The position numbers and the translations under genes are program-made. A DNA stretch of 56,613 nucleotides from a bacterium (GTDB lineage Bacteria > SAR324 > NAC60-12), in contig CBDDTI010000523.1 in the NCBI GenBank assembly GCA_965233585.1, positions 1-56,613 on the forward strand, written 5' to 3'. The notes below the pieces were generated by a model, which saw nothing but the letters and a program-made list of their open reading frames with translations, was not told where the DNA came from and did not search any database. Below, piece by piece: positions 11,346 to 31,750 of this stretch (position 1 is its first letter; each line of letters begins with the position of its first letter).

Positions 11346-11612
11346 CTATTTTTCTCCATTGTCAAATTGTTCTCGATTTAAAAGCGCAAAGAAAGGTTCT
11401 AAGAATGAAAAATGTTTAAAAATTCCGTCCTTTTTGCTCCAAACCCGCTCAAATGTAATTTTTCAAACTCTAAATTTTAAAAAGAAGAATTTCCAAAGTT
11501 GTTTCTGATAAGACAAAAATTTGATCGCGCGTATCAAAGTTTTCATCCAATCCTGTTAAAAATTCAACTCACAGTCGTTTTCAACCGTTTCAATTATCAA
11601 GACATCTATTTT

Positions 11613-12197
11613 CTCATAGTTTTTTGATAAATGTGAGGGGTTAAATTTTTTAATTATAATTTATCTCTCACATTTATTTTAAAATTGTGAGTTTTTACTA
11701 CACTCAAGATAACTCCGAAGACCATCTTTATTTCTCATGCTTTTTTGACAAATGTGTGTAGGTCTAAATTTTTAAATTAAATTTGACCTGTCACATTTGG
11801 CATTAAAATTGTGAGCTATTACTCAACTCTAAAATCCGGACACTGCTTATCATCTCATGCTTTTTTTACTCTTGTACGGGTCTCATAATGTTTTATCATA
11901 TATGACACTCGCCACAAGAGTAATTAAATTGTGAGCAATTATTTAGCATAAACATCGTTAAATCACAGTCAACCTTCATCACATTTCATCATCAAGATCA
12001 ACGTCTTACACTTTTTTAACTTTTGTGCGCGATTTAAATCTTTAATTTTAATATTTGAATCCACATAAAAGTTACAAAATTGTGAGCAACTACTTCACTC
12101 CGAAAATGTTAACATCTAATCTTCATACTTTTTTGGCACTTGTTTAACTCCAAAATTTTTATTTATTTGGATTTGCTCAAGTACCATTAAATTGTGA
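11613..12197 (+). ncRNA. Array of five ~80-nt hairpins (candidate pri-miRNA cluster)
   Basis: Hairpins at 11613-11691, 11734-11815, 11854-11935, 12005-12086 and about 12123-12197. They share a basal CTCAT..TTTT / AAATTGTGAG stem, have different but complementary upper stems, and show G-U pairs on the plus strand. Confidence 0.55.
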
Positions 12198-12279
12198 TCA
12201 CCAACTCATCCAAATATTTGCCGAGCACGCTTTTATTTATTAGTTGGGTCTATGTTAAATGTTGTTTCAGTCGTGCAGC

Positions 12280-12663
12280 ATGTGTGGGCAAGTCAACAAC
12301 CAACCAACATCAGGATCGCCGCATAATTCTGACTGGGATTCTGGTCCTGACGAAGCCGGTATTTACAATACTTCAGATCCAACTCACATCGTGCATTGTA
12401 TGCGTCGCATTTCTGCTCATCTTCGCAGAATCAACGAGTCTTTGGAATCATTGGACAGTGAATTGGTAAACTACAGGACCTGTTTCAAAGACAAACTTCT
12501 TGGAAAACCTAATATTTCTGGCGACTCAGCCACCAGGTTGTGGTGGTATCGTGAAATCCAAAACGAACTAAAAGTGTTTCATTTTTATGCGTCTTTTTGC
12601 ATGAAATTGTTGTGCAAAGATTTTTGTTTGGAACAACACTCAGTTGATGGAGAAGAAGTATGA
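12280..12663 (+). CDS. Polinton hypothetical protein
   Basis: ATG at 12280 (MCGQVNN), 10 nt after a TTTCAG acceptor-like site; 127 codons; stop overlaps the next start (ATGA). Confidence 0.55.
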   Translation: MCGQVNNQPTSGSPHNSDWDSGPDEAGIYNTSDPTHIVHCMRRISAHLRRINESLESLDSELVNYRTCFKDKLLGKPNISGDSATRLWWYREIQNELKVFHFYASFCMKLLCKDFCLEQHSVDGEEV

Positions 12664-12983
12664 ACAACAACATTTGGTTAAAGATGAACCCAAATACACA
12701 TCAACGCTCAGAACCAAACCATCGTTTTGAAGAATTGGATCAATTTCATCAAGATTTGCCAAGATCTTCTAGCCTCAGCCGTTTTTACTCTGACCCTTGC
12801 ACTGATTTTTGTGCTGTGATTGGAATGATCTTTACTATGATTATCTCTATTTGTGCTTGTATATGGTTGATATCGGTATCAACTTGTAACGCTCTAAAAT
12901 CGCTTGCTTTAACAAATCGTACTTTAGAACTTTCTTTAGTAAATTTTACCAATAATTCATTGTTTTTAAATGATACGTTTTAA
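12660..12983 (+). CDS. Polinton small single-pass membrane protein
   Basis: Hydrophobic FCAVIGMIFTMIISICACIWLISV; C-terminal N-glycosylation sequons NRT, NFT, NNS and NDT; AATAAA right after the stop. Confidence 0.6.
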   Translation: MNNNIWLKMNPNTHQRSEPNHRFEELDQFHQDLPRSSSLSRFYSDPCTDFCAVIGMIFTMIISICACIWLISVSTCNALKSLALTNRTLELSLVNFTNNSLFLNDTF

Positions 12984-12994
12984 TAGAATAAAAT

Positions 12995-14746
12995 TTAAAT
13001 TGGGTTTTTAATTACAATATTTAAAATAACACTTTTTTCGTTGTCGAATTCAATTAAGTCTCCGTCCAATCTCCTCAATTCGATCTTCATGTTGTCTAAA
13101 TAATCAACATTGCATTTGATAAATTCTAAATGCTCAAAATGGATCGAGCAGTAGTCATTTTGTTTTGACTGTCCAATCGTGGGAATAATTCTAAGTATTG
13201 GGTAAAATTTGTCTCCGACAATAGAATGCTGAACAAAATTGGCATAACAAATCATAACACCAGGATACAGTTTGTAAATGTCTATCGGTTGTGGTGCTTG
13301 ATAAACTGAGTAATTTCTCACAGCAAAAAAATGGTAGTTGTTTTGATCACTAACTCTTTGTTTTTCTTCATTGGGGTAATCGTACATTCCTAAAATCGGA
13401 CAAAAGCTTTGTGGAAATCCAATTATAAAAATTTGATCAGTTTTAGCCGTAATTCTTAAATATCCATTAACGTTTTCAAAATATACTAGTTTCTTTAATT
13501 CTTCTGTCAATAAATCATTCATTGCCGTTGTTAAATCGTTAGAGTCACAAAAATAATTTTTTGGTATATTCAATTTGTGTTCTTCCTCTATGTTTCCATC
13601 CTTAACCAGTTTTATAATTATTGGTTCATTAGCGATTGATTCTGGAATGCTGCATATGCTGTCGGGAAAAGAAATATCCATCAGGGCAATTTTCGCGTTT
13701 GGATTTAAATGCAGTGGATGTTTTAAATGCACCCAAAAGCTACTATTTGTATTTTCGTAATCCAATTTGGCATCTACTTTCGAATCGATTCGCACGTGTC
13801 TCAATTCGTGATCCATGTTTTTTTCTTTCTCTCTCAAATGGTAATGAATTAGAGACGGTTGACCTTCGTTTAAGCTCAAAAGATTTCCAAAAGCATCTGT
13901 GAATTGAGAGTTTATCGTCTCAATATTGGTTTGCCGCACTTGATAATATCTGACCTTTTTTACATTATGGTAAAAATAATGACCCTCCATTTGCTTAGGT
14001 AAAGTTGTTGTAAACATAATTGTGGAATAATTATCACTGTTAGGAACGTCGGAAATAATATTTGATTTTACGTGAACTAAACCGGGTTTCAAAACGGAAG
14101 TCACTTTATTTGCTATGGTTTGAAACCTAAAATTTTTTTGTAACGGATAATACACATATTCGTTACCAAAATATTTAATTGATTTTTCTCCAGAAAAAAA
14201 CACTCTGTCTTTATAACATCTTAACTTTATAATTTTTATTAACTGTTGATGAATTAGTAAGTATCTATTATGATTGTAATTTTCATTTTCCGTCTCATTT
14301 TCGGTTTCTTTTTTAGGACCTTCTTCAATTATGTAGAATCTTTTAGTTTCACCGTCTGATTCGAGGTCACCAACAACCATTTTCATTCCTTCCTTGTAAA
14401 TAAATTGCATCAAATTTTGCATTAATCTATATACTGACAGATCTTCTTCATCTAAATCAGGCAAAACCCAAACAGATTTTGTCTGGTTTAAAATCTCGGT
14501 CTCTATCTCCTTTTCTGAAGAATTTATAGATGTTAATTCGTTTTTTAGCGTTATGACACCGATTTGACCTTTTGTCATGGTTAATTGGTTGTAATTATAA
14601 TGTAACCCCATAGATACTATTCCAATTTCCCATTCTCTATTTTTCAAATCTAAATTTTGCGGAAATAAATTGGTAAAGGAATTTAAAGTATTTTTGACGT
14701 CCGTATTGGAACCAGCGTTTGACACGCAATAAATGTTATAATCCAT
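12995..14746 (-). CDS. Minor capsid protein (penton, PX-like) with two tandem domains
   Basis: Two copies of the Polinton penton pattern: NTLNSFTNLFPQNLDL..EWEIGI and NTNSSFWVHLKHPLHL...KIALMDISFP. C-terminal ends IETINSQFTDAFGNLL and SIVGDKFYPILRIIP...LDNMKIELRRLDGDLI. Confidence 0.85.
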   Translation of the reverse strand: MDYNIYCVSNAGSNTDVKNTLNSFTNLFPQNLDLKNREWEIGIVSMGLHYNYNQLTMTKGQIGVITLKNELTSINSSEKEIETEILNQTKSVWVLPDLDEEDLSVYRLMQNLMQFIYKEGMKMVVGDLESDGETKRFYIIEEGPKKETENETENENYNHNRYLLIHQQLIKIIKLRCYKDRVFFSGEKSIKYFGNEYVYYPLQKNFRFQTIANKVTSVLKPGLVHVKSNIISDVPNSDNYSTIMFTTTLPKQMEGHYFYHNVKKVRYYQVRQTNIETINSQFTDAFGNLLSLNEGQPSLIHYHLREKEKNMDHELRHVRIDSKVDAKLDYENTNSSFWVHLKHPLHLNPNAKIALMDISFPDSICSIPESIANEPIIIKLVKDGNIEEEHKLNIPKNYFCDSNDLTTAMNDLLTEELKKLVYFENVNGYLRITAKTDQIFIIGFPQSFCPILGMYDYPNEEKQRVSDQNNYHFFAVRNYSVYQAPQPIDIYKLYPGVMICYANFVQHSIVGDKFYPILRIIPTIGQSKQNDYCSIHFEHLEFIKCNVDYLDNMKIELRRLDGDLIEFDNEKSVILNIVIKNPI

Positions 14747-14752
14747 TCCACG

Positions 14753-15835
14753 TTATTGTGACACATCAACTACATCTTTCTCATATGTCCAACTGGGGTT
14801 TTTATACCCTTTCCATTTCACCAAAACCATTTTTTCACCTGTTTTTTTATCTTTTTTTGTTCGTAAAATTTTTTCAATCATAAATAATTCTGGCTCATTC
14901 ACGGGAGTAAGTTCACTCTCATAAAAATTTCCTTCCAGAGTTTCATCCTGTTCTAAAGTTTCCAATTCATAAGTAGGTTTAGGCAAACGAGTAAAAATTG
15001 ATTTTATTTTAAAAATTTCTTCCTTAAATTGTTGTGTAAAACCTCTGTCAAATTTTCCCTTCATTATGCTAATGCGCACGGTTTGACCAATTTTGTATTT
15101 TGGTCTTTTTCTCTTAAACTTTGAATAATGCAATTCCTGTTTTCTTCTAATAAAATAAGTCCGACCGGGGAGCTCGGCTTCAGCGGGTGACATTCCAATC
15201 ATACGATGTTTACGATGGTTGTAGGTATGAACAAGAAAAGGTAATGCATCGATGTACCTATCTGTATTTTCGTGAGTCATGTATTTAAACATCAGATTTT
15301 TTAAAGTTCGGTTAAATCTTTCCACAAAAGGGGCGTGCACAAAATTGTTGCTGTGTAATAGAAGAATGTTATTGTTTTTGCAGTAGGCTTGAAACAATTT
15401 ATTCTTTATTTCTGCACCTTTATCAGCTAAAATTCTACGAGGAAACTTTTTTGCTCTTTTCATAATAGACTCGAATCCCTCCATAAAAGTTTTTGCTGTT
15501 TTATTTTTTAAGGGTTCTACAAACGCGAATCGTGTAAAAATATCAATAGCTGTTAAAAGGTATCTATTCCCGTCATTTTCTTCGATCAAATTTCCTAAAT
15601 CTATAAGATCAATTTGAAATTGATATCTCTTATGATAAGCAAATGTTGGATTTCTAGGTTTAGGTAATTTTGGTTGTTTATGAAGTGTGTAAGAATCAGT
15701 TCCCTTTAACCATTCTTCAATTGTCGTTAAAGGAATTTTTTTTCCATAATAATAATAAATCAACGCAGGAGATGCAAAAGCTATTGGTGAGCCTGGTCTT
15801 GCATATTCTTTTAAAAAAATCTCTTTTGTTGTCAT
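14753..15835 (-). CDS. int: Retroviral-type (rve, c-int) integrase with a C-terminal chromodomain-like region
   Basis: DDE motifs FQIDLID, ILADKGAE and VERFNRTLK; YTLHK motif; terminal FMIEKIL...VLVKWKGY..PSW. Confidence 0.95.
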   Translation of the reverse strand: MTTKEIFLKEYARPGSPIAFASPALIYYYYGKKIPLTTIEEWLKGTDSYTLHKQPKLPKPRNPTFAYHKRYQFQIDLIDLGNLIEENDGNRYLLTAIDIFTRFAFVEPLKNKTAKTFMEGFESIMKRAKKFPRRILADKGAEIKNKLFQAYCKNNNILLLHSNNFVHAPFVERFNRTLKNLMFKYMTHENTDRYIDALPFLVHTYNHRKHRMIGMSPAEAELPGRTYFIRRKQELHYSKFKRKRPKYKIGQTVRISIMKGKFDRGFTQQFKEEIFKIKSIFTRLPKPTYELETLEQDETLEGNFYESELTPVNEPELFMIEKILRTKKDKKTGEKMVLVKWKGYKNPSWTYEKDVVDVSQ

Positions 15836-15841
15836 TTCTTT

Positions 15842-16243
15842 TTAAAACAAGGGTTGTTTAGTTATTCTCCGTCTTTTTTTCCTAGATTTAGCAATTGACG
15901 GTGTTTTCCTCTTTCTGCTCGAATTTTGAGCTCGATATTCGTTGTTGGTATCTGCTTGTCTAGCAGCGTTAAGCAAAATACCGCGAGTAGCTGATTTTAA
16001 TCGTTGTTTAGCTTTTCTCCCGACCGGTTGACCCTCCAAAGCCTCTAATGCAGTTTCTACCGCCGCCTTTGTCGCCTCTTTTTTTAAAGCTTTACCTGCG
16101 GATCTTATCGGTGCGCTTCTAGCCACTTTTCCAATAGTTTTTACCGCTGATCTTGCTACCGGCATTAAACCGCGAAAAATTCCGGAAAAAAGTGATCCGA
16201 TTCCCGAGCCTCGTTGCCAACGTAAGCCGCTGTGGTAATTCAT
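15842..16243 (-). CDS. Basic virion core/membrane-active protein with a QRGSG-GSLF amphipathic motif
   Basis: QRGSGIGSLFSGIFRGLMPVARSAVKTIGK is typical of conserved small Polinton/adintovirus proteins; C-terminal NLS-like RKKRRR. Confidence 0.75.
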   Translation of the reverse strand: MNYHSGLRWQRGSGIGSLFSGIFRGLMPVARSAVKTIGKVARSAPIRSAGKALKKEATKAAVETALEALEGQPVGRKAKQRLKSATRGILLNAARQADTNNEYRAQNSSRKRKTPSIAKSRKKRRRITKQPLF

Positions 16244-16251
16244 ATATTTTC

Positions 16252-16971
16252 TTATTGCTCTAGACTTTTAAGACATCTGTATAAAGACATAACACTGACG
16301 CCTAAAATACGAGCCGTATTTTTGACGCTCGGATATAGTGCTCTTGTTTCTTTTAAAAAGGCATAAGCACATGCTGCTAATAAAGTCCTAGGAGCAAAAG
16401 AACTATTTTCATTTTTATTTAGTTTTTCTTTTATAGTTGTCATCTCTTGATAATTTAACTGTAGAGGCTGTAAAAAATATTCTGCCATATCTTTTGCTTT
16501 TATAGAATTTTCTGTTTTAATTGTGTTGGTCGAATCTTGTCTGTATAATTTTATCCATCGCCATACCGTTTTTGGGCTAATACCAATTTCCTGACACAAG
16601 TGACTTATTGGGCGGGGAATTTTTTCCTCTATTAAACTTTGATACAATGCCATAGCAATTAAGCCTTTTGGATTAATTTTAATTTTTCCATTTTTTTGAT
16701 AATGCCACGCTGCTATTTCTGACCACAAGTTAAAAATAGTGTTTGTAACATCATTATTTAAATGTAATTTATTACATAAATTTTTTAAAATATTTTTTTC
16801 CTTCTTTAAATGTTCGCTGTTTTGTTCAAATTCTTCATTTAAATTTTTTATTTTTTCCCATTTTGTTTCTAAATTTGGATCACAATATATTTTATCAATA
16901 ACTAAACCACACTCGGTGCACACTACGTCTCCTTGTCTGGTGTCTTCTATTATATATTGATGAATGCACAT
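16252..16971 (-). CDS. TFIIB: TFIIB-like transcription initiation factor
   Basis: N-terminal Zn ribbon CIH..IIEDTRQGDVVCTECGLVID; two cyclin-like repeats (LCNKLHL..., IPRPISHLCQEIGISPKTVWR, PRTLLAACAY...TARILGVSVMSLYRC). Confidence 0.9.
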   Translation of the reverse strand: MCIHQYIIEDTRQGDVVCTECGLVIDKIYCDPNLETKWEKIKNLNEEFEQNSEHLKKEKNILKNLCNKLHLNNDVTNTIFNLWSEIAAWHYQKNGKIKINPKGLIAMALYQSLIEEKIPRPISHLCQEIGISPKTVWRWIKLYRQDSTNTIKTENSIKAKDMAEYFLQPLQLNYQEMTTIKEKLNKNENSSFAPRTLLAACAYAFLKETRALYPSVKNTARILGVSVMSLYRCLKSLEQ

Positions 16972-17077
16972 TTTAATCCAATCTAATTTTTGAACATAAT
17001 TTCATTGTTTATTGTACGAAGTTCAAAATTTAACTGATTTTACAAATAATCCGACGTAATCTTTTATTATATTGAAT

Positions 17078-17620
17078 TTATTCAGTTTTATATTTTTTCA
17101 GCAATTCAGAAATAATTTTTATTCCTTGTGTAGCGTCTTTTTCGCAGGAAGCTCCAATTATTACTATTTTTCCAGACGAAAATATTAAAGCAGAACACTT
17201 TTTTAATGTTAAAAACATTCCAGGAAATTTCTCAGAGTCGTATCTCTTTTGGATAATTTCAAAATCTACATTTAATTTCAAATTGTTGTAAAATGTTAAT
17301 AAATTGATTTTTGATGACATATGACACAAACAAGTCATGTTTTCTATTTTAAACTTTTCAGTAATAAATTTACTACTTATAACAAGTTTTAATTCGTCTA
17401 ATGCTTTTGGTATATGCTCTGTGGAAGGGATTTTAGTAATATTTACGTGGAAATTTCGATTTTGCTTTGTTTTAGTAAACACAATAAAAGAATATTTTTT
17501 TTTAACAACAGTAAAATTATTATAATGTTTTAGTACATTATCGGTATTAAAAGAAATTTTGTCACTGTCGATGAGACGAATTTTGCAACTGATTTTAACA
17601 TTGCTGACCATCACTTCCAT
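17078..17620 (-). CDS. TBP: TATA-binding protein (TBP)-like
   Basis: ATG at 17620. C-terminal repeat KIENMTC...INL...YDSEKFPGMFL....SALIFSSGKIVIIGA matches the TBP repeat consensus; the N-terminal repeat (VSNVKISC...FIVF...VNITKI) is diverged. Confidence 0.88.
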   Translation of the reverse strand: MEVMVSNVKISCKIRLIDSDKISFNTDNVLKHYNNFTVVKKKYSFIVFTKTKQNRNFHVNITKIPSTEHIPKALDELKLVISSKFITEKFKIENMTCLCHMSSKINLLTFYNNLKLNVDFEIIQKRYDSEKFPGMFLTLKKCSALIFSSGKIVIIGASCEKDATQGIKIISELLKKYKTE

Positions 17621-17626
17621 CTTGGT

Positions 17627-18985
17627 ATGGGCTTGCCTGACAAAAGCGGAATTGCTGGATTGGCCGTGGAACAAAACGATGGCACAGAAAGTGGTTTAGC
17701 GCTTCACGCACCCTTAGAAGTGGAAACGGGTCTATTGGAAGGGGCTCACGTTATTTACAATAGCGTGGCTTCTATCACCAACACCGGTCCGGTAGAATTT
17801 CTTGTTCCTCGCGACAACGAGTGTTCTTTTATACTGAGTCAAACCAGACTCAGTGGGCATTTTGTAGTGACAAATGATGACGGCGGCTTTGTCACGGAGG
17901 CAAGTAAAACCGCGTTGGTAAATCATTTTGCTGCTTGTTTATTCAGTCAAGTAGAAGTGTATTTGAACGGTGTTCAAGTAGCTGATTTAAGTTCGGCGGT
18001 CACCTACCCCTGGAGAATGTTTTTACAATCATATTTAAGTTACAATATTGACGTAAAAGACACTTATCTGGCTGCCGAAGGATATTATCCCGAAACTATA
18101 GACGAAGTTACCACCACCAAAATTACCGAAGAAGTTTCCTCTAATTCTTTGAAAAAAAGAAAGAATTTGATTTTAAACGGGAAAAAAGTATTTTTTAACT
18201 CGCGTATAGCTGTTGATCTGTTTGACACTGATCGATTCTTACCACCAAATGTGGATATCAAGATAAAATTGGTTAGATCGGCTGAAACATTTGGTTTGCT
18301 TCAAGATCCTGCAGCAGCAAAACCTTTCAAAATTGTGTTAAAAGATGTCAAATTGCATATGAGAAAAGTGTTGCCTACGTTGATAATACGAGAAAGTTTC
18401 AAAAACAAACTTTTAAAAGAACCGTGCTACCTGCCTTTTAGCTCTACACGTTTAAGACATTACGTTATTCCTCAAGGCGTGTCGTCTTTTAACATCGCTA
18501 ATATTGCTAATGGAACATTACCCAAACAAGTGTTTTTTGTGATGGTTCACAATCAGGCTATGTCGCATGCTCCCGACAAAAATCCTTTTAATTTTCAACA
18601 CTTTAATCTTTCCTCGTTTAATTTAAAAAAGAACGGGCAATGCGTATTTCCCAAACCTTTTCAACCTAATATTGAGGAGGGGGACGTTGTTGATTTGTAT
18701 CGACATTTATACGACAGTATAGGCATTTCGCACGGCAATCAGTCCATTGGCTTGACGTATGATGCTTTTATAAATGGAAGATTTTTTCTGGCGGCCGACT
18801 TGACACCAGATCAATGTAATTCGTACCACACTCATCCAGAAAATTATGGAAATTTAGATTTAGAGTTGGCTTTTTCCCAAATCACTCCCCATCCAATATA
18901 CGTTCTGGCCTTATCTATTTTTAACTCCGGTATTAAAATAGATCAATTTCAACAAGTAAAAGGAACCATAAAAGGAACCAATTAA
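17627..18985 (+). CDS. Major capsid protein (double jelly-roll, PY/hexon-like)
   Basis: SITNTGPVEFLVP, CLFSQVEVYLNG, DLFDTDRFLPPNVDIKIKLVR, GTLPKQVFFVMV, KNPFNFQHFNL and ADLTPD are Polinton MCP motifs; 452 aa. Confidence 0.93.
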   Translation: MGLPDKSGIAGLAVEQNDGTESGLALHAPLEVETGLLEGAHVIYNSVASITNTGPVEFLVPRDNECSFILSQTRLSGHFVVTNDDGGFVTEASKTALVNHFAACLFSQVEVYLNGVQVADLSSAVTYPWRMFLQSYLSYNIDVKDTYLAAEGYYPETIDEVTTTKITEEVSSNSLKKRKNLILNGKKVFFNSRIAVDLFDTDRFLPPNVDIKIKLVRSAETFGLLQDPAAAKPFKIVLKDVKLHMRKVLPTLIIRESFKNKLLKEPCYLPFSSTRLRHYVIPQGVSSFNIANIANGTLPKQVFFVMVHNQAMSHAPDKNPFNFQHFNLSSFNLKKNGQCVFPKPFQPNIEEGDVVDLYRHLYDSIGISHGNQSIGLTYDAFINGRFFLAADLTPDQCNSYHTHPENYGNLDLELAFSQITPHPIYVLALSIFNSGIKIDQFQQVKGTIKGTN

Positions 18986-18988
18986 AAT

Positions 18989-19471
18989 ATGGAGGGTGGG
19001 TTATCAAATATCTTTTTAAACAATTACATTCGACCCAGATGTAAGAATTTCATCGGGGTATTTTCGGTCGACGACTTGCCATCTGATCCGCTTTCATTGC
19101 CTTGCTGTCTGATCGCTAACTTATCCAAAAGAAATCAAGAAGGATCTCATTTCGTAGCAATGTACATTAACAAGAAAAATCAACTCTATTATTTTGATTC
19201 TTTCGGTTTTTTACCACCGATATGGAACAAATGTTTGATGAAGTTTTTACGACCCTGGATAGAGAAAAACTCCTTCAAAATTATCTTATCTCACTCAATT
19301 CAGAGTTTCCGTTCTTTGTTTTGTGGATGGTACACGTGCGCATTTTGTTTATCTGTGGGCAACAATTTAATGACCCCTCAACAATTTGTTAAATTATTTG
19401 TAAAAAATCCCAAATCAGAAAACGATAAAATTGTAACTCACTTTATAAAAAAAATTGAAAATAAATGTTAA
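18989..19471 (+). CDS. Adenain-like cysteine protease
   Basis: GSHFVAMYI (His), YYFDSFG (Asp), IQSFRSLFCGWY (Gln/Cys). Confidence 0.95.
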   Translation: MEGGLSNIFLNNYIRPRCKNFIGVFSVDDLPSDPLSLPCCLIANLSKRNQEGSHFVAMYINKKNQLYYFDSFGFLPPIWNKCLMKFLRPWIEKNSFKIILSHSIQSFRSLFCGWYTCAFCLSVGNNLMTPQQFVKLFVKNPKSENDKIVTHFIKKIENKC

Positions 19472-19484
19472 TATATTTTTACTT

Positions 19485-20945
19485 TCATAACTTTGGATAT
19501 TTTCCTGAAAAAAGTTTTTTAACAGAATCTACTTTAGCTTCTGATTTAGACATTTTTCTTGTTTTTGATCTGGTTTTTGCAGGAGACACACCAGCTTCAA
19601 TAGGGTCCCTGTTTATTGGGCTTTTAGATTGTGACATTTTCATTGATTTTGATCTGATTTTGGTTTGTGCAGGAGTCATGTCAGCATCAGTGGAATTTCT
19701 TTTTGTTGCACCCTTTGATTTAGCTTTTCCGGCTGAAAATCGTATTTTAACAGGTGTGAGTGGAAATGAAGGAGAAGAGCTTCCAATTCCTCTTAATCTT
19801 CTTTTTCGAGGGGTAGAGGTCATTCCAAAAATTTTATTTTGATTTCTTACAGACAATTCTTTATAATGTTCTTTCATCATATGTTTGGCAAATTGTGGAA
19901 TGCCGACATATTGCTTCCCGCAATTGGGAAAGGGACAAACTATTTTGCCAGCTGCATTCTTTTCTTTCACTGCTTTTGCAATAGGTGTATTTCGCCAATT
20001 TAACACAACTGGAGATTTTATTGTGGAAAGTGCGTATGAGTAATCCATTTCATTTGAGCTGTTTCTTCTAGCGTAAGGGCTGGAAATCATTCCTTTAATG
20101 GTCTTTTTGTCTTTCAAAGCTATATCTTTAGGATGATCTTTTAGCAAATGTTTGCCCAATTGCCCTTCGTCAACATATTGCTTCCAACAATCAGGAACTG
20201 GACAAACTAATTTGCCTTTTGAATTTCTTTTCGTCATCGCTTCTAAAACAGGTGTTTCTCGCCATTCTTCTCGTTTGGTAGTAACAGGAGTTGAATAAGC
20301 TGATTCGTTCGGACTTTTTGTTTTTTCAGGACTAAGAGATTTTTCTGCAACAAATTCTCTTTCAATAATGGGGGTACTAGGTAAATTATTTTCTTCTTGT
20401 TGGGGAATTTCAGTGGGTGTTCTGTAAAGAGATACGTCCGTGAGATCCATATCGGAATCAATTCGAGCAGGTGTTAGTGCATTTGGTATTTCTTCTCGTT
20501 GCGTAATTTGGGTGGATGGTGATCTTAAAACCGGGTGGTAAGCGCGGTCAATACTGCTACCTTTTTGGGTAACTCGACCAGGAGACATTACATTCTGTAT
20601 TTCTTCTCGTTGAGGAATTTGAGTGGATGGTGATCTCGAAAGAGATTGGTAAGTACGACCCATGCTATCAGATTGGGCAATTGATGTGACATTCGGTAAT
20701 TTATCAGACCCAAAACGAAGTAATTTATCCCCAGTTTGGATTATTTTCTGTCTGTCTTGTAGATTTTTAAATTTAATGGCATTTTCAATATAGTTGGTTG
20801 TTTCCGGTTTTTCATTCATAGAAATAAGTTCTTTTTTTGATTCATCGTCTTCCGTATTTTTTATTAATGAATAATATAATCTTTTAGGTACTAAAAACAT
20901 GGAATACATTTCATCATGTGGTTTTATTTTTACTCCTGAGCTCAT
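19485..20945 (-). CDS. Ser/Thr-Pro-rich basic protein with two C2H2 zinc fingers
   Basis: CPVPDCWKQY...LGKHLLKDH and CPFPNCGKQY...FAKHMMKEH; N-terminal MFLVPKRLY; internal repeats; position between protease and ATPase. Confidence 0.8.
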   Translation of the reverse strand: MSSGVKIKPHDEMYSMFLVPKRLYYSLIKNTEDDESKKELISMNEKPETTNYIENAIKFKNLQDRQKIIQTGDKLLRFGSDKLPNVTSIAQSDSMGRTYQSLSRSPSTQIPQREEIQNVMSPGRVTQKGSSIDRAYHPVLRSPSTQITQREEIPNALTPARIDSDMDLTDVSLYRTPTEIPQQEENNLPSTPIIEREFVAEKSLSPEKTKSPNESAYSTPVTTKREEWRETPVLEAMTKRNSKGKLVCPVPDCWKQYVDEGQLGKHLLKDHPKDIALKDKKTIKGMISSPYARRNSSNEMDYSYALSTIKSPVVLNWRNTPIAKAVKEKNAAGKIVCPFPNCGKQYVGIPQFAKHMMKEHYKELSVRNQNKIFGMTSTPRKRRLRGIGSSSPSFPLTPVKIRFSAGKAKSKGATKRNSTDADMTPAQTKIRSKSMKMSQSKSPINRDPIEAGVSPAKTRSKTRKMSKSEAKVDSVKKLFSGKYPKL

Positions 20946-20947
20946 TT

Positions 20948-21322
20948 TTAACGACGACGTCGCGAACTCTTATTTGCAATAATTTGGGCCAAAAGAGGGA
21001 TGACGGTGCTGGCGATCGCTGATAAAACTCCTAAAATTCCGCCTTTTTGTAATATTTTTCTTTTTTTTGAAATGTCGGAAGAACGACGCGGCGGTGCAGC
21101 AAGACGTCTAAATTCTGACAAATGAGCTCTTATCTTTTTTTGAAGACGTGTTCGTACTTTGCCATGTATGGGCAAGTCACCGTTCAACACGTAATGTAAT
21201 ATACGACAAAGCAATTCAACTCCGCGATCGTCCAAATGACTTAAAAAATTGGCACAATCCTGATGTTTTAATTTTTTTATTACATAAAAAAGTGAACTAG
21301 CTTTTCCTAATGTTTTAGACAT
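20948..21322 (-). CDS. Conserved small Polinton basic protein with a Q-x-GG cleavage-like motif
   Basis: LCRILHYVLNGDLPI...RRLA...KKRKILQKGGILGVLSAIASTVIPLL. Confidence 0.75.
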   Translation of the reverse strand: MSKTLGKASSLFYVIKKLKHQDCANFLSHLDDRGVELLCRILHYVLNGDLPIHGKVRTRLQKKIRAHLSEFRRLAAPPRRSSDISKKRKILQKGGILGVLSAIASTVIPLLAQIIANKSSRRRR

Positions 21323-21370
21323 TTTGACAGTTGCAATTTTTTATTTTTCTTAAATAGATATGAAAATCCT

Positions 21371-22066
21371 TTAAACGGTAACGTAAGCTTTCATCAGTCC
21401 CTCGTACGGAAAAATGTTGCTTCGAATTCTGACTTTATCGTCTTGTTGTTGATGGAAATCTAGAAGGAGATATCCGTGACTTCGACCGTTAACAGCTTCC
21501 CTGTATGCTTTATTTAAAATTCCGACTCGTCCGGGGAAAATTTGTTTAGCCAAATGCGCAACCGCACTTCTGTCCCGAGGATTGTTAAAAAGAACCATAT
21601 ACTGAGTGTTTATGCTTAATGTCCGCAAATCACCTTTTTTATCAAATAAATTTTGACACAGAAAAACGGTGAAACAATTGTAGTGATGAGTCAAAACCGT
21701 AAAAAAATGTTTTAATATTTGTCCAACATCGTCTAAATAATCATCAAAAACAACTAATTTGGGCATTTTTCTTGGATATGATTCCAAAATATCTTTTAGT
21801 TCTTCAATCGAATTTGGAATACTTTTAAATTTACGAAATGTTGGAAAACGAGAGTTTGAACGTTTGTCTCGATTCATATCATCTTCCATGTATTCATAAG
21901 CTTTTTGTGGTTCTTTGTAGAACAACAACATTGTTTCTGGTGGAGTTGCAAAATATTCATGCCTACCAACCACTAAATGTTTAAGCCACGTTGTTTTTCC
22001 ACTCGATGTTGGGCCAACAATTAACATGTTGGAAGGAATACTGAACCTTAAATCAAAACCATCCAT
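21371..22066 (-). CDS. A32/FtsK-like genome packaging ATPase
   Basis: Walker A GPTSSGKT, Walker B LVVFDD, THHYNCFTVFLCQNLF, RTLSINTQYMVLFNNPRD and HGYLLLD. Confidence 0.95.
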   Translation of the reverse strand: MDGFDLRFSIPSNMLIVGPTSSGKTTWLKHLVVGRHEYFATPPETMLLFYKEPQKAYEYMEDDMNRDKRSNSRFPTFRKFKSIPNSIEELKDILESYPRKMPKLVVFDDYLDDVGQILKHFFTVLTHHYNCFTVFLCQNLFDKKGDLRTLSINTQYMVLFNNPRDRSAVAHLAKQIFPGRVGILNKAYREAVNGRSHGYLLLDFHQQQDDKVRIRSNIFPYEGLMKAYVTV

Positions 22067-22129
22067 TTTGCTAGTTTTTGAAAAATATTTAAAAATTTTT
22101 TCTTAAATAAAAGTAACAATATGTTTTAT

Positions 22130-25100
22130 TTATTTACAAATAGGGCATTTAGATGATTTGTTGTTGACAATAAGACAATTTCCTAGTGATAAAGTGTGAT
22201 ATCCGCAATTCAAAATGTGTCTTTTGGAATCCATTGCTGATAACGCAATCTTTCTTTGAAAACATGTCCGAATTTTATGATTCTTTGATCTTAAGTTTTT
22301 GAAAGATTTGTAAATTAGAACAGTCCGTTTCAGACATTTTTTGTAATCGTTATAGGTTAATTGCTTTTTTATGCTAGATTTTTTTAAACCTTTGCAAATT
22401 TTCTTTTCTTCTGTTTTGTTTTTGTCTGAAAAATCAGTAATTTTCATAGAATAACATTTTGGACGTAAGCCTATAAAGTGAGTAATAGCTGCTCTGCCTT
22501 TTAGTTCGTCTTTGAAATAAAAAAGCTGATTGGCTCTACTGTCATCGAAAAGAGGATGTTGTTTGGGGTACTTTGAAAAATCAAATATGTGCTCCAATTT
22601 TTTCATTTCCCTTTCCAAGTTGTTGCATCTTACTTTTAAAAGAAAAGAATCCGTGTCTGAGAAACATAAAGACACATTTTCTTCGCCAAAATGTTGTTGA
22701 ATCGTGTCATAATACGATCTGTACATAAACAACTTGGACAATTCCAAAATAGAAAATCCAACAGCTAAAGGCTTCCTGAGCTCTATTATTGCCGGCTTCT
22801 TGTTGACAGCCACCAAGTTTTCATTGATGATTTGAAAACTGTTGATGTGTTGACCAAGACTGGCTTTCCTTAAGCTCTGTTCATCACCACAAAGGACCAC
22901 TTCAGAGTAATTTCGAACATTTTCTGAAATGCAGAATAAGATTTATTTAATAAAGAAAATTGATTATGTGCGCAATCACCTCAGCTAACTAGCCGTCCCA
23001 TATCACATTTCATTTTCCTCTGTAATTAGCAATGTACTATAATTTACTTCAATTTGAAATCATTCCTTTTTTAAAGCCCGACATAAACGGACATCAAAAA
23101 TTCCAACAAAATAAACACTAAGTCAAAATGGATAAAAAAGATCAGGAAAAGAGCAAAGCTTTTTGGTTAAAAGTAATAGAATCAGCCCAGGAGGAGGCAA
23201 CTTCAAGTCCGACTTCTGGCAGTAGCTCTACCGGGGCTGCGGCTGGGGGAGCATGGTCATCTACTAAAACTGAGGGAGCATGGTCATCTTCTGGGGCTGC
23301 GGGTGGAGGATCATGGGCATCTTCCGAGCGTCCCGTGGCACCTGCTTGGCCATCACGGACTCCGTACAAGTCCGTCCCACAAAAATCAGGGTCGGAGTCG
23401 TGGAAGAGCGCATCTACTGCCGGGGTCGGGGGCGGAGGAGCATGGTCATCCACTAAAACCGGAGGAGCATGGTCATCTTCTGCGGCCTTGGGTGGGGAAT
23501 CATGGTCATCTTCCGAACGTCCCGTGGCACCTGCTTGGCCATCACGGACCCCGTACAAGTCCGTCCCACAAAAATCAGAGCGGGAGTCGTGGAAGAGCGC
23601 ATCTACTGTCGGAGCCGGGAGTGGGGGAGCATGGTCATCTACTAAAACTGGAGGAGCATGGTCATCTTCTGGGGCTGTGGGCGGAGGAGCATGGTCATCT
23701 GCTAAAAATGAGGGGGCATGGTCATCCACTAAAACTGCGGGAGCATGGTCATCTTCTGCGGCCTTGGGTGGGGGATCATGGGCATCTTCCGAACGTCCCG
23801 TGGCACCTGCTTGGCCATCACGGACCCCGTACAAGTCCGTCCCACAAAAATCAGGGTCGGAGTCGTGGAAGAGCGCATCTACTACCGGGGCTGGGGGCGG
23901 GGGAGCATGGTCATCCACTAAAACCGGAGGAGCATGGACATCTTCTGGGGCTGTGGGCGGAGGAGCATGGTCATCTGCTAAAACTGAGGGGGCATGGTCA
24001 TCTACTAAAACTGGAGGAGCATGGTCATCTTCTGCGGCTTTGGGTGGAGAATCATGGGCATCTTCCGAGCGACCCGTAGCACCTGCTTGGCCATCACGAA
24101 CCCCGTACAAATCCGTCCCACAAAGGTCGGAGTCAGAGTCACGAAAGCAGACCTCTCATCGCGTGTCATTTGATTTGTCTTCACAATCAACACAAAAATC
24201 TAAACCACAACCCTATACTCACGTGGAACCTTCACCAACACCAGAAGTGCGTCAAGTAACGGCATTTCCATCAGTGTGGTCTCCGTCTACAGCTCGAAAA
24301 GTTACAAAAAAAAATTAAAATTTAAATTTGATCATTTTTCTTTTTCTTTTTGATTACAAAATAAACACATCATTTTATAAAAATTGATTTTTCAAAAGTT
24401 TGCGTACTTGATTAATTCATTTTGCGAATTTTTAATTTAATATTGATTTAATATTATGAATATTTATGAGATAATTTGCTAATTAATATGTGAAGGTTTG
24501 GAGATTCATTTTCTAAAATTGACAAAACCATGCGGGAAAATTCAAAACAAATTTAGAGAAGGAAGAGGAGAAGGAGAAGGAAAAGGAAAATGGACAAGGT
24601 AAAGTTAGGAAGGATGAGGAGGGGGAAATACGAGGTGTTGAGGGCGAAATGGACGGAAGAGGAGGAGGAGGAGAAGTTCAAGCTGCTGCCGGACCCGCCA
24701 TTGAGCGAGACACCGCCGCGTCCACCACTGATGTGGGGCGGTGGCCGTTTTAGACGGCTTGCCAGAGGCTTGATCATGATGATCAGGACGGCCGCCGCCT
24801 CCGTCGCCGACTTTGTCGCCGGTCGTCCGGACGTCATCCCCACCGACGTCATCCCCGCCAACGTCATCCCCACCGACGTCAGCCCCGCCGACGTCATCCC
24901 CGCCGACGTCAGCCCCGCCAACGAAGCCGATGTTTCTGAAGATGACGATTTTGATGAGGCTAAGTGTGTGGTTGGTGCCGGCAGGACGTACTGCCGCAAC
25001 TGTCGCCGGTACCACCACGCACTTGTGCCTCAAAATTAAAGAAAAATACAAAAAATGACCCCAAATTCGTTTGAGTATTTAACAAATTCATTTTTTACAG

Positions 25101-28037: not shown

Positions 28038-28089
28038 TTCCAAAGTTTATTTGAAATTTTTTTGAATAAAACAAAATAAGTTTATTAAA

Positions 28090-28809
28090 TCAAATGCTAG
28101 TAATTTGAATATCGCTAAAAGATAAAGATTCAAATCTCCATCCAGAACCTCTCATTAACAAATCTTCTTCTCTATTTACTAAATTATGTAATAATTTTTG
28201 GACTTTGCCTTTTAACGAGCGGGATGAATCAAAAGACGTGAATTGAATGTAGCTGGTTCTTAGAGCAAAAACATCTCGATCATTGGACAATATTTGAGGC
28301 GACGACTGATCAGAAGGTTTATCAGAGGTATCATCAATATTGGTAGTATCTAGTTCAATGTCCTTCTTCTCTGCAGCGGAATTCAAATCAGGAATTTGAT
28401 ACGCCGCTGTCAAAATAAGGGCAACTTTAACCGTAAAAGTTTTACTTAGTTCGTGACAAATAACGTCAACTATTTCTTGTCTATTTTTTTTATTTGCAAC
28501 AAATCCTTGAAGCGTTTCTTTTGAAAAAATGTGTTTTCGATAAAATTTGATTTTTCCGTTAAGTGCGGATTTGTACAATGAATAATTTAAATTTTCTAAA
28601 TGAGAAGCGTCAATGTGTGAGACTAAATCTTTTCTTGATTTAAAGGAACTTACTTCGTTCTTACAAAATGGGCATTGAAACGACTGATTAAGTGGGGTCC
28701 GAGCTCGAGATTTTGTAGTTTCGCGATGACGGAATAAATGATGTTTGTCGCGAGAAGATTTTCTGTCAAATGATTTTTGGCATTCGGGACACACGTAAGA
28801 TTTCGGCAT
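28090..28809 (-). CDS. C2H2 zinc-finger protein ending in the GSGW motif normally found at the pPolB N-terminus
   Basis: CPECQKSF...DKHHLFRH and CPFC...LVSHIDASH; C-terminal EEDLLMRGSGWRFESL. Confidence 0.8.
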   Translation of the reverse strand: MPKSYVCPECQKSFDRKSSRDKHHLFRHRETTKSRARTPLNQSFQCPFCKNEVSSFKSRKDLVSHIDASHLENLNYSLYKSALNGKIKFYRKHIFSKETLQGFVANKKNRQEIVDVICHELSKTFTVKVALILTAAYQIPDLNSAAEKKDIELDTTNIDDTSDKPSDQSSPQILSNDRDVFALRTSYIQFTSFDSSRSLKGKVQKLLHNLVNREEDLLMRGSGWRFESLSFSDIQITSI

Positions 28810-28895
28810 TCTTACAAAATTCTGAAATCAAAATTTATTTTAACATTAATTTGAGACTACATTTTATAATATATACATTATGAACTCAAAAAATC

Positions 28896-29681
28896 TTAAG
28901 AAGACAACAACTCCCTACATCGTTGCAATTGAGTGTTTAATCTTTGGCATTCGTTTTGAAGCCAAAGATTTTGTCGCTCAAGTGATCGTATTTGACGTTG
29001 AATCAAAGACTCAGCATATCTTTCATTAATATCGAAAATTACTCTTCTTCTGTTGAATAAATGTTCGACACAAGTAGAATAGTGGTAGTCATCATCCGTC
29101 TCATCAAAATCCTCCTCCTCCTCAAATTCTTCCCCATCGCTGTTTATAAAAATAACGGAACTTGAACGAGAACCGTTTATGGTAGAGGCCGAAGTTTGAG
29201 TTGCTGGACGACGGTAAGGGTGAAAATATCTTCCACCCCTGCCAGCACCGCCTCCAACCTCCCGCCCAGCCCTTGGAGCAGAAGTAGATGGTTGAGGATT
29301 TCTTTGAATTGGTTGACCTCGACCAACACCACGCCCGACATTCGAAATATTTGAGGTGTTGCGGACAGACCCACCTCGTCCAACTCCGCGTCCAGCAAAA
29401 AGGGGGTTTGAGACGTTATTTGGTCTCGCTAACCTCTCACCTCGTCCAATCGGTACAACAGTTGGAGAGACTGATGTTAAATCATCAGAATTGATGGTTG
29501 ATGTCAAATCGTCAGAGTTATTAATAACGTTTGTAAGGTCCGATGTTGAATCATCGGCAGCGTTGTTGTTGTTGTTGATGTTAGAGTTTGATGTTGAATC
29601 ATCAGCAATACGTACTGTAACCCTTAACCCTTGTGAGTCATGGGTTACTTGACGAGATTCAGAATTGTTAAGACCAGGCAT
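28896..29681 (-). CDS. RG/RGG-rich, acidic protein with a C-terminal heptad coiled coil
   Basis: GRG repeats, FHPYRR, EEFEEEEDFDETDDD and IRSLERQNLWLQNECQRLNTQLQRCRELL; TATA-like TATAAAA on the minus strand at about 29771-29777. Confidence 0.75.
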   Translation of the reverse strand: MPGLNNSESRQVTHDSQGLRVTVRIADDSTSNSNINNNNNAADDSTSDLTNVINNSDDLTSTINSDDLTSVSPTVVPIGRGERLARPNNVSNPLFAGRGVGRGGSVRNTSNISNVGRGVGRGQPIQRNPQPSTSAPRAGREVGGGAGRGGRYFHPYRRPATQTSASTINGSRSSSVIFINSDGEEFEEEEDFDETDDDYHYSTCVEHLFNRRRVIFDINERYAESLIQRQIRSLERQNLWLQNECQRLNTQLQRCRELLSS

Positions 29682-29899
29682 TTTTACCTTGAGAATTGAC
29701 TTGGGGTAGAAGACTTTTCTTGGTAAATGAACGAAAATGGAATGACGGAATGGAAAATATAAATCCTGACTTTTATAGAAATTTAAGCGGTGAGGCGCTC
29801 ACTTTTAAACGGTTTCTAGACCAATCGCACAAGGAAATAACTGCACGAGAAAAATCCTGCCCAACACCCTGAACAATCAAATTTCTGACAGTAAATTTA

Positions 29900-30225
29900 T
29901 GGTCACTGATTGTCGATGCAACGTGCATCATTTAATCTCAGTTTAATACTTAAATCAATGAAAATTTTATGATCATGATATTTCAAGTTTTTTAAATTCC
30001 TTGGACACGTGCTTGGTTGACAATGCAATGTGCATCATCTAATCTTTGTTAAATACTTCAATCAACGGAAAATTTATGTTCATGTCATTTTGAGTTTTTA
30101 AAATTCCTTGAACACGTGCTTGGTTGACAATGCAATGTACATCATCTAATCTCCGTTAAATACTTCAATCAACGGAAAATTTATGTTCGTGTCATTTTGA
30201 GTTTTTAAATTTCTTGATCACAAGC
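29900..30225. repeat. About three copies of a 107-bp tandem repeat in a divergent intergenic region
   Basis: ACACGTGCTTGGTTGACAATGCAATG at 30005 and 30112, plus a degenerate copy from about 29900. Confidence 0.85.
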
Positions 30226-30432
30226 TTAGTTTCTTAATTGAAATTTTATTTCAATGATCGTATCGAACACTTGCCCTCACACATGGACGGTGTTGGGTCC
30301 TTTAGGGCGTCAACTAGCGCATGTTGGTGGTAGACATTAAACTTTAAAAAGGTTTAAAAGAATGGAATTTTTATTTTGAATGTCAGTATAAATTTGAGTT
30401 TAGAGTAAATAACCCGCATTTAAGAAAAGAAC

Positions 30433-31646: not shown

Positions 31647-31750
31647 AATGAGGTGGTTACTGTGTACATATGTATATTTTAAAATAAAAGAGATGCGCAT
31701 ACTCTAAATAATACCTTACCTACTAATACAATAAAATATAAAATAAAAAT

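Follow-up and report, generated by a model that had tools for sequence, protein, structure and literature searches.

A TBP-like and a TFIIB-like gene side by side in an endogenous adintovirus/Polinton-type element in which no RNA polymerase domain was found

The window analysed here is a stretch of 56,613 nucleotides. Within it a low-GC block (11350..33800), with about 26-38% GC compared to about 50% in the flanks, was taken as the element; its edges were drawn from base composition only. The element is around 22 kb long, virus-like and integrated in an animal-type genome. Reading along the minus strand, the block carries a gene for a 583-aa protein (12995..14746) that matched no Pfam family and gave 0 PDB sequence matches at E<=5, an integrase gene (14753..15835), a gene for a 133-aa basic protein with no family match (15842..16243), the TFIIB-like gene (239 aa, 16252..16971) and the TBP-like gene (180 aa, 17078..17620). 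On the plus strand these are followed by a capsid-like gene of 452 aa (17627..18985) and a weak match to adenain-like cysteine proteases (18989..19471; Pfam Peptidase_C5, 16.6 bits, cut-off 21.3, E 0.0064). Beyond them, again on the minus strand, are weak matches to an A32/FtsK-like packaging ATPase (21371..22066; Pox_A32 19.3 bits with a cut-off of 22.8, FtsK_SpoIIIE 16.4 bits) and the remains of a protein-primed PolB gene (22130..28046).

The integrase consists of an rve core (PF00665), which scored 37.7 bits and so lies above the cut-off of 32.6, and a C-terminal chromo-like domain, which at 24.1 bits falls under the Pfam cut-off of 25.1. PolB type-2 (PF03175) was matched at 26.2 bits (cut-off 25.8) on a single piece of the polymerase gene (25172-25558), and further polymerase motifs were recognised by eye from what we take to be the PolB motifs. 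The capsid-like gene has 177 homologues and no Pfam or PDB sequence match (0 at E<=5); its distant relatives bear the NCBI name “uncharacterized protein F54H12.2-like”, its named homologues are “F54H12.2-like” or hypothetical, and “F54H12.2” is not mentioned in the literature searched. The protein-primed PolB, the rve integrase and the capsid-like gene, together with the putative adenain-like protease and packaging ATPase, are of the kind seen in adintoviruses and Polintons (Mavericks). The element is an endogenous virus of this type, and the Polinton setting of the original prediction is borne out by these matches, the protease and ATPase ones being weak.

The PolB gene lies in at least six frame pieces, as judged from stop-to-stop ORFs, and is interrupted by a GC-rich repetitive insert of about 2.2 kb (22943-25168). 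Inverted-repeat searches returned local satellite arrays and low-complexity pairs only; they found no terminal inverted repeats, and no inverted pair brackets the low-GC block. Since PolB is in pieces and terminal inverted repeats were not found, the copy in the window is a decaying endogenous one, and because its polymerase gene is broken the element itself is probably dead. It had been claimed that the element has no RNA polymerase gene. This agrees with the Pfam scan, which found no RNA polymerase domain in the ORFs of the low-GC block that were covered, namely those of at least 120 aa apart from an overlapping ORF (19465-19842, +) and the ORFs of the GC-rich insert.

Both putative transcription factor genes are intact and adjacent at exactly the predicted coordinates, the TFIIB-like frame being open from ATG to stop and the TBP-like frame open from its ATG. 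A 198-aa form of TBP beginning at a TTG codon was rejected as an artefact; relatives begin at the methionine of the 180-aa form. Truncation of the window TFIIB was also considered and rejected: an N-terminal extension of 9-12 residues is predicted in 6 of the 15 aligned relatives, there is no open frame for it here, and it is absent from the six most distant relatives, which start at the same methionine as the window protein. The pair had been placed between the integrase block and the capsid gene. This placement is correct, but the 133-aa gene lies between TFIIB and the integrase, so that the minus strand reads TBP, TFIIB, 133-aa gene and integrase, separated by 106, 8 and 6 bp. The first of these gaps, an AT-rich spacer running from the TBP stop to the TFIIB start (16972..17077, minus strand, read directly from the sequence), is the sole sizeable intergenic one of this gene block. 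TBP and the capsid-like gene are divergent, with 6 bp between their start codons. The possibility that these are host genes merely lying beside the element was rejected; they share its low GC content, they are sited between the integrase and capsid genes, and the capsid gene appears to accompany them elsewhere.

The TBP-like protein was matched by Pfam TBP (PF00352) at 60.7 bits (cut-off 22.9, E 1.3e-16) in its C-terminal repeat only, and the match of the family profile is likewise confined to positions 88-180. The protein can be divided into a canonical C-terminal repeat, approximately residues 87-180, and a diverged N-terminal repeat, residues 1-86, as had been proposed. Profile matches to TBP were not seen in both halves: neither Pfam nor the family profile matched the N repeat, and hhalign detected no sequence likeness between the two repeats (probability 0.3, 4 columns). 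The AlphaFold2 model has a pLDDT of 91.1 and a pTM of 0.81. When compared to the PDB with Foldseek it gave 46 matches at E<=1e-3, of which ranks 1-44 as listed are TBP or TBP fusion chains. Because Foldseek aligns the model with TBP chains over 191-202 columns (TM 0.59-0.72, probability 1.00), the whole protein is predicted to be a two-repeat saddle, the N repeat being recognised through the model alone. By sequence, the protein's matches to archaeal TBPs (E 1.9e-13 to 8.8e-13) are stronger than those to eukaryotic TBPs (1.7e-9 or weaker).

The window TBP was aligned with 24 relatives, consisting of 23 of its 24 full-length family matches and the outlier P0036. In this alignment F36, F48, F132 and F147 are invariant. 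In the model two of them lie where strands 36-40 and 134-139 begin and two where strands 44-48 and 143-147 end, so that each repeat has one phenylalanine where S2 starts and another where S3 finishes; these positions are presumably those of the DNA-kinking phenylalanines of TBP, two per repeat. In alignments with archaeal TBPs, F132 and F147 fall on the FPG and F-S-S-G-K motifs. Phenylalanine residues are described as crucial for the binding and unwinding of double-stranded DNA by TBP in the available text of PMC12209930. Invariant positions in the family number 21 of 86 in the N repeat and 18 of 94 in the C repeat. The N repeat, no less conserved within the family than the C repeat, is therefore constrained rather than decaying.

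The TFIIB-like protein is laid out as a Cys3His zinc ribbon, a variable stretch of 34 residues and two cyclin-like repeats, each ending in a helix-turn-helix. The ribbon is matched by Pfam Zn_Ribbon_TF (PF08271) over residues 2-35 at 33.0 bits (cut-off 29, E 4.3e-8). The Pfam TFIIB repeat (PF00382) scored 18.5 bits, under its cut-off of 23.6, a cut-off that is reached by 6 of the 32 more distant TFIIB-like family members scanned. The best PDB sequence match of the protein is human TFIIB (E 2.1e-6), and the family profile matches human TFIIB with an E of 7.1e-7; the core is colinear, profile positions 62-244 corresponding to human residues 112-289, the core stretch alone giving a weak match of 13 bits. 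The AlphaFold2 model is of moderate confidence (pLDDT 72.1, pTM 0.42). Foldseek nevertheless returned 41 PDB matches at E<=1e-3, headed by TFIIB as it occurs in Pol II initiation complexes (chain 7zwd_M, 5.0e-8) and by the TFIIB core 1c9b_A (186 columns, E 9.9e-7); Brf1/Brf2 and archaeal TFB came after TFIIB, and cyclins last. Two cyclin-like repeats are thus present as judged from the model, being below cut-off by sequence alone, and the proposed combination of a zinc ribbon with two cyclin folds is supported by the Pfam ribbon, the PDB profile match and the TFIIB core found by Foldseek. Models and profile matches taken together place both proteins in the expected folds, and they are almost certainly a TBP, complete though diverged, and a short factor of the TFIIB type.

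Conservation within the TFIIB family was read from an alignment of 16 sequences, made up of the window protein and 15 of its 42 matches. The zinc ligands C2, H4, C18 and C21 are invariant in all 16. Invariant positions make up 12 of the 26 in the ribbon, and 14 of 25 and 14 of 21 in the two helix-turn-helix stretches, compared to only 1 of the 34 between the ribbon and the first cyclin repeat (residues 27-60), where length also varies. Residues 26-51 have a pLDDT below 50 in the model. In cellular TFIIB the B-reader and B-linker lie between ribbon and core, and serve start-site selection and DNA opening. This B-reader/B-linker region is not conserved in the TFIIB-like family. The ribbon hairpin is about 55% identical to human TFIIB by hand count, against 17-20% for the whole model, which would fit docking on a conserved host surface.

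Full-length relatives of both TBP and TFIIB extend down to 44-45% identity with long invariant stretches. TBP family matches of 100-139 aa account for 11 of 35, and outside the family the nearest TBP match, P0036, has just 26% identity. The family of short TFIIB-like proteins (200-290 aa) is large, with 458 representatives at E<=1e-3. When the match tables of the different genes were compared, longest contigs of equal size recurred in the TBP and TFIIB tables (6759, 8156, 8217, 10894), in the capsid and TBP tables (1526, 6860, 8156, 11868) and in the capsid and TFIIB tables (5966, 8156, 11734, 21519). The recurrence of identical contig sizes in separate tables indicates that related elements carry TBP, TFIIB and the capsid gene jointly. 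It also indicates that the pair recurs across a lineage of such elements, rather than being unique to the window copy.

A candidate for a shared upstream word was also found. Among 24331 distinct 8-mers, TAAGAAAA is the only one located upstream of four genes. Its four occurrences, at 21345-21352 (-), 16247-16254 (-), 22098-22105 (-) and 30421-30428 (+), are each 11-39 nt upstream of a gene start and on the strand of that gene; the one at 16247-16254 (-) precedes the 133-aa gene and overlaps the TFIIB stop codon. In this one element the putative word stands before 4 of the 18 gene starts.

The element carries intact TBP and TFIIB genes but no RNA polymerase gene was found in it, and the best reading, as had been proposed and with about one chance in two by our estimate, is that the pair steers host Pol II to the element's own genes. 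In this mechanism the viral TBP would bend a promoter element within the element's own DNA. The viral TFIIB would then dock on the TBP-DNA complex and read the flanking DNA via its two conserved helix-turn-helix segments, and host RNA polymerase II would be recruited by its zinc ribbon, where the resemblance to animal TFIIB is greatest. As a result, genes of the element, perhaps the late or virion ones, could be transcribed without host TFIID or TFIIB. The residues that a DNA-bound TBP/TFIIB pair would need, namely the four phenylalanines, the zinc ligands and both helix-turn-helix stretches, are invariant. TBP/TFIIB pairs accompany all multisubunit RNA polymerase systems, according to the available text of PMC12917281.

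A number of observations count against this mechanism. The B-reader/B-linker region has a single invariant position in 34 and a model pLDDT under 50, the match to the Pfam TFIIB repeat does not reach its cut-off, and the TFIIB model is of only moderate confidence. The gap of 6 bp between the TBP and capsid starts is not ordinary promoter space. The window PolB is broken, linkage in other elements rests on contig sizes, and TAAGAAAA is found at 4/18 starts of one element. Furthermore, the position aligned to R169 of human TFIIB, which we take to be the partner of the TBP stirrup, is an invariant isoleucine, although the alignment is weak here, and the matching acidic stirrup position in the TBP-like family varies (D, N, R or S). 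With isoleucine at the one position and variation at the other, the pair may have rewired or lost the canonical TBP-TFIIB contact.

The unconserved, poorly modelled B-reader/B-linker region could also be expected of a pair that binds host promoters, TBP/TFIIB partners or Pol II unproductively, damping or re-programming host transcription without driving the element's genes; from established TFIIB biology, a TFIIB that docked on Pol II and was unable to open DNA would inhibit. The N repeat of cellular TBP meets TFIIA, and its complete remodelling here would also suit a decoy. Such a role is nonetheless unlikely in our judgement: co-conserved DNA-reading proteins with four invariant phenylalanines and two invariant helix-turn-helix stretches exceed what a decoy needs, the family of short TFIIB-like proteins is large (458 representatives), and giant viruses have annotated TFIIBs of about this length, which are assumed to be working factors there. 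The Foldseek matches to Brf1/Brf2 chains of Pol III complexes (6f42_V, 1.4e-6; 4roc_A, 3.1e-4), together with a BFVD match annotated “TFIIIB subunit Brf1/TFIIB”, raise the question of whether a Brf-like protein and TBP might instead recruit Pol III (or Pol I), for example for small element RNAs. We consider this distinctly improbable, as TFIIB chains outscore Brf chains throughout, the ribbon finds its best sequence match in TFIIB, and Brf factors carry a long C-terminal extension for which 239 aa is too short.

The remaining alternatives concern the position and the state of the element. The pair lies a short way upstream of the integrase and shares its strand, with the gaps of 106, 8 and 6 bp given above, and the chromo-like domain of the integrase (24.1 bits) is another chromatin-reading part; the pair could thus bind promoter-type DNA or initiation complexes and guide insertion of the element. 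Ty3 integrase uses TFIIIB-bound tRNA genes, and the Ty3-TFIIIB structure 7q5b is among the TFIIB Foldseek matches, as its Brf1 chain. Gene order is, however, the sole tie of the pair to the integrase, and with one insertion and neither target-site duplication nor element ends definable, we regard targeting as less probable again than recruitment of Pol III. The broken PolB of the window copy and the many fragmentary relatives (11 of 35 TBP matches at 100-139 aa) would be compatible with passenger genes, either host-derived copies that do nothing for the element or genes that have already become pseudogenes in a dead copy. This seems to us the least probable of all, in view of two intact frames whose full-length relatives retain long invariant stretches down to 44-45% identity, a nearest non-family TBP that is only 26% identical (P0036), and archaeal scores that exceed eukaryotic ones, which would not be expected of a recent copy from the host.

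Virus-encoded TBP and short TFIIB-like proteins are likewise found in the Nucleocytoviricota (giant viruses, iridoviruses, ascoviruses and asfarviruses). When the TFIIB model was compared to BFVD, 16 of the 17 named matches at E<=1e-3 were from this group, no BFVD match of any kind exceeded 20% identity, and the Atlas clusters nearest the TBP-like protein contain viral TBPs of 173-193 aa, most commonly from Nucleocytoviricota. Most Nucleocytoviricota of this kind encode their own multisubunit RNA polymerase, whereas none was found in the 22-kb element. In its logic the steering of host Pol II proposed here resembles the late-gene complexes of beta- and gamma-herpesviruses, in which a viral TBP mimic recognises a non-canonical promoter element and recruits host Pol II to late genes; there too a nuclear DNA virus without an RNA polymerase supplies a TBP-like protein. 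The herpesvirus mimics are, however, large and not standard two-repeat TBPs, they have no sequence relation to the pair described here, and we know of no TFIIB-like partner for them.

Two further viral systems bear comparison. Nimavirus (white spot syndrome virus), a large DNA virus infecting animals, and its endogenous relatives carry a TBP homologue, which in the tree of PMC4506587 branches near giant-virus TBPs with weak support; that protein is 891 aa long as opposed to 180 aa here, and the available text of the paper mentions no TFIIB partner, nor does the term “RNA polymerase” appear in it. The poxvirus factor VITF-3 is an atypical TBP/TFIIB-like heterodimer in promoter recognition, and so resembles the present case as a virus-encoded TBP-like and TFIIB-like pair acting together (PMC12917281, available text); a chain of the poxvirus pre-initiation complex, 7amv_K, is a weak Foldseek match to the TBP model (E 1.4e-3). 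VITF-3 is highly atypical and serves the poxviral RNA polymerase in the cytoplasm, whereas the pair described here is far closer to canonical TBP and TFIIB.

Prior annotation of such a pair would reduce its novelty. The adintovirus paper by Starrett et al. 2021 (PMC8502044) labels a gene “TBP” in the legend to its Fig. 5, so novelty is somewhat lower. TFIIB does not occur in the available text of that paper, its preprint or one supplement file, and the linked TBP/TFIIB pair is not described there as far as that text extends. Neither a Polinton-encoded TFIIB nor a TBP/TFIIB pair was found in the Polinton/adintovirus literature searched, where gene lists end at replication, integration and virion genes; GenBank annotations may hold such labels. 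Of the Polinton, Maverick and adintovirus literature that names TFIIB, the matches listed have giant-virus subjects by title. All 9 mentions of TFIIB in the available text of 10.1101/2022.05.25.493380 concern giant-virus core genes, and term look-ups gave no occurrence of TBP, TATA or TFIIB in 10.1101/2024.03.25.586562, 10.1101/2023.10.06.561300, 10.64898/2026.06.19.733378 or PMC10120064.

A much wider reading, which we put forward only tentatively and think unlikely as a whole, is that an entire lineage of animal Polinton-type elements of about 20 kb uses a private TBP and a reader-less TFIIB to read a non-TATA word (candidate TAAGAAAA) for host Pol II, and that the pair is kin to the TBP and TFIIB of giant viruses. 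If this were true, virus-owned initiation factors would have arisen in Polinton-like ancestors before giant viruses gained an RNA polymerase.

To our knowledge the transcription of Polintons and adintoviruses is almost unstudied. With a conserved, linked TBP/TFIIB pair and no polymerase, a 22-kb element would rank among the smallest known viral systems that bring their own core promoter recognition, and this raises the question of whether two factors alone are enough to re-aim host Pol II. It likewise raises the question of whether virus-owned initiation factors preceded virus-owned polymerases in the Polinton to giant-virus scenario. A short TFIIB without a conserved reader and linker would, in addition, be a natural experiment on what TFIIB can do without.

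The low-GC block at ~11350-33800 of the window (~26-38% GC against ~50% in the flanks) is an adintovirus/Polinton-type element whose minus strand carries five closely packed genes: TBP-like (17078-17620), TFIIB-like (16252-16971, after a 106-bp spacer), a gene for a 133-aa basic protein (8 bp further on), integrase (6 bp beyond that) and a 583-aa gene (after another 6 bp). On the plus strand a 452-aa capsid-like gene (17627-18985) diverges from the TBP-like gene and is followed by a gene for a putative adenain-like protease. The genes beyond it encode two C2H2 zinc-finger proteins, a 124-aa protein, a putative A32-like ATPase and a protein-primed DNA polymerase (PolB). The original prediction placed the pair between the integrase block and the major capsid gene; the TBP-like gene is indeed next to the capsid-like gene, with the TFIIB-like gene on the integrase side, but the 133-aa gene intervenes before the integrase. 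The two divergent start codons are only 6 bp apart (17620-17627), so any promoters have to sit within coding sequence, unless transcripts begin at a distance and are spliced. As predicted, no RNA polymerase domain was found among the element ORFs scanned against Pfam.

The PolB gene (22130-28046, -) is broken into at least six frame pieces, one of which exceeds the Pfam cut-off for organellar/viral PolB (26.2 vs 25.8 bits), and is split by ~2.2 kb of GC-rich repetitive DNA. No terminal inverted repeats were found around the block in an inverted-repeat search of the window, and the flanks contain fragments of BEL/Pao retroelements together with a long ORF bearing a domain of the viral fusion-glycoprotein type. 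Taken together, these features indicate that the element is an integrated, decaying copy within an animal-type genome. The PolB insert (22943-25168) reaches 61% GC, has open frames on both strands and includes a 396-aa ORF (23128-24318, +) built of Gly/Ser/Trp-rich repeats. Near the right edge a 232-aa ORF (32469-33167, -), with a hydrophobic leader-like start and an otherwise Ser/Thr-rich, mucin-like sequence, accounts for the strong GC skew at 32400-33200.

The flanking glycoprotein ORF (37328-41893, +; 57% GC surroundings) is uninterrupted over 1521 aa; residues 728-1347 match a Monjiviricetes-type fusion glycoprotein (E 2.7e-43), and the first 727 residues match no Pfam family. The BEL/Pao peptidase and integrase pieces (44256-46690) lie nearby on the opposite strand. 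Arrays of a ~53-nt unit at 534-760 and 10952-11334, the latter adjoining the left edge of the element, are inverted, ~10.4 kb apart and up to 94% complementary in their arms; they may mark the termini of a second large transposon, with the virus having inserted into it or next to it. A near-perfect palindrome at 54632-54832 has 100-nt arms, 91% complementary, separated by 1 nt.

The identities proposed for both proteins, and the divergence of the TBP N repeat, were borne out, including by the AlphaFold check that had been suggested. Pfam TBP matches the 180-aa TBP-like protein at 60.7 bits over its C-terminal half only, and the family profile likewise detects PDB TBPs through the C repeat alone (E 1.3e-34 for archaeal to ~1e-22 for eukaryal). 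The AlphaFold2 model, built with 24 relatives in the input alignment, is confident (pLDDT 91.1, pTM 0.81), and in Foldseek all 180 residues align to TBP cores (46 PDB matches at E<=1e-3, TM up to 0.72). Profile-profile alignment found no sequence likeness between the halves; in the family alignment the N half is nevertheless at least as strongly conserved as the C half (21/86 and 18/94 invariant positions). F36, F48, F132 and F147, at the start of S2 and end of S3 of each modelled repeat, are invariant; these are the positions that the DNA-kinking residues occupy in TBP. The C-terminal stirrup retains x-P-E-K-F-P-G, with its first acidic position variable.

In the 239-aa TFIIB-like protein Pfam detects the zinc ribbon above its cut-off (33.0 vs 29 bits), and the cyclin repeat scores below its own (18.5 vs 23.6 bits). 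The top PDB sequence match is human TFIIB (E 2.1e-6), against which the family profile aligns ribbon and core in the correct order. Its model reaches moderate confidence (pLDDT 72.1). The best Foldseek matches are TFIIB chains from Pol II initiation complexes, followed by Brf and TFB and finally by cyclins; those in a viral structure library are giant-virus TFIIBs and a single archaeal-virus TFB, none above 20% identity. Ribbon residues C2, H4, C18 and C21 never vary, nor do most positions in the two helix-turn-helix stretches closing the cyclin repeats. The 34 residues at the place expected for TFIIB's B-reader and B-linker are variable and poorly modelled. At E<=1e-3 a full-library profile search gave 458 cluster representatives, most of them 200-290 aa long and matching end to end; 17 of the 32 scanned carry a TFIIB ribbon (E<=1e-3) and 6 pass the TFIIB-repeat cut-off, which bridges the protein to bona fide TFIIB repeats. 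The ribbon scores best against human TFIIB by both sequence and profile, whereas the TBP-like protein, searched as a single sequence, has better scores with five archaeal TBP entries (E 1.9e-13 to 8.8e-13) than with any eukaryotic one (1.7e-9 or weaker); the two genes may differ in origin.

Relatives are numerous, with 35 TBP-like family matches (44-98% identity; a further outlier stands at 26%), 42 TFIIB-like (44-92%) and 177 capsid-like; none of the TBP-like or TFIIB-like matches bears a name. The closest clusters hold 40-84 member sequences, which makes this a multi-copy, fairly young family. Linkage of the pair elsewhere, which the original prediction had raised, was judged from identical longest contig sizes (in bases) in clusters of different genes: TBP and TFIIB share 6759, 8156, 8217 and 10894, capsid and TBP 1526, 6860, 8156 and 11868, and capsid and TFIIB 5966, 8156, 11734 and 21519. 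Such recurrence suggests, but only indirectly, that the three genes occur together in related elements, including the 8156-base contig, whose proteins share just 53%, 52% and 73% identity with those of the element.

Four copies of the 8-nt word TAAGAAAA lie in the element (16247-16254, 21345-21352 and 22098-22105, all -, and 30421-30428, +), each preceding a gene start by 11-39 nt on that gene's strand; the genes are the 133-aa, 124-aa and ATPase genes and an 83-aa ORF. Among 24331 distinct 8-mers it alone precedes four genes, and the extended form ATTTAAGAAAA, containing TAAG, the core of baculovirus late promoters, is exact at three of the four. With four sites in one element, it is a candidate promoter lead only.

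Giant viruses commonly encode homologues of TBP and TFIIB, and in herpesviruses host Pol II is recruited by a TBP mimic. A nimavirus TBP is on record (PMC4506587), as is an atypical TBP/TFIIB-like pair in poxviruses (PMC12917281). For Polinton-type viruses the sole TBP mention found is the legend of Fig. 5 in the adintovirus paper (PMC8502044); TFIIB is absent from the text of that paper, its preprint and one supplement file, and, save in giant-virus contexts, from the Polinton-related literature searched (figures, bioRxiv supplements and GenBank annotations lay outside both searches).

Less probable readings are that the pair serves as decoy or shut-off factors, is directed to Pol III, targets integration or consists of passenger genes. 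In TFIIB the ribbon docks on Pol II, and it is this portion of the TFIIB-like protein that is closest to animal TFIIB; the pair is also predicted, from alignment and model, to retain the features needed for sitting on DNA. These points, with the lack of a polymerase domain in the scanned ORFs, favour recruitment of host Pol II over the rivals. A fully canonical mechanism is disfavoured by the unconserved reader/linker stretch, by the apparent loss of the canonical TBP-TFIIB salt-bridge positions and by the want of promoter space between the divergent TBP-like and capsid-like genes. Recruitment of host Pol II, in which the pair would act as private promoter recognition and bring the enzyme to the element's promoters, is the best reading at roughly even odds. 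The pair itself is real and conserved, and is carried by a small virus with no RNA polymerase domain among its scanned ORFs.
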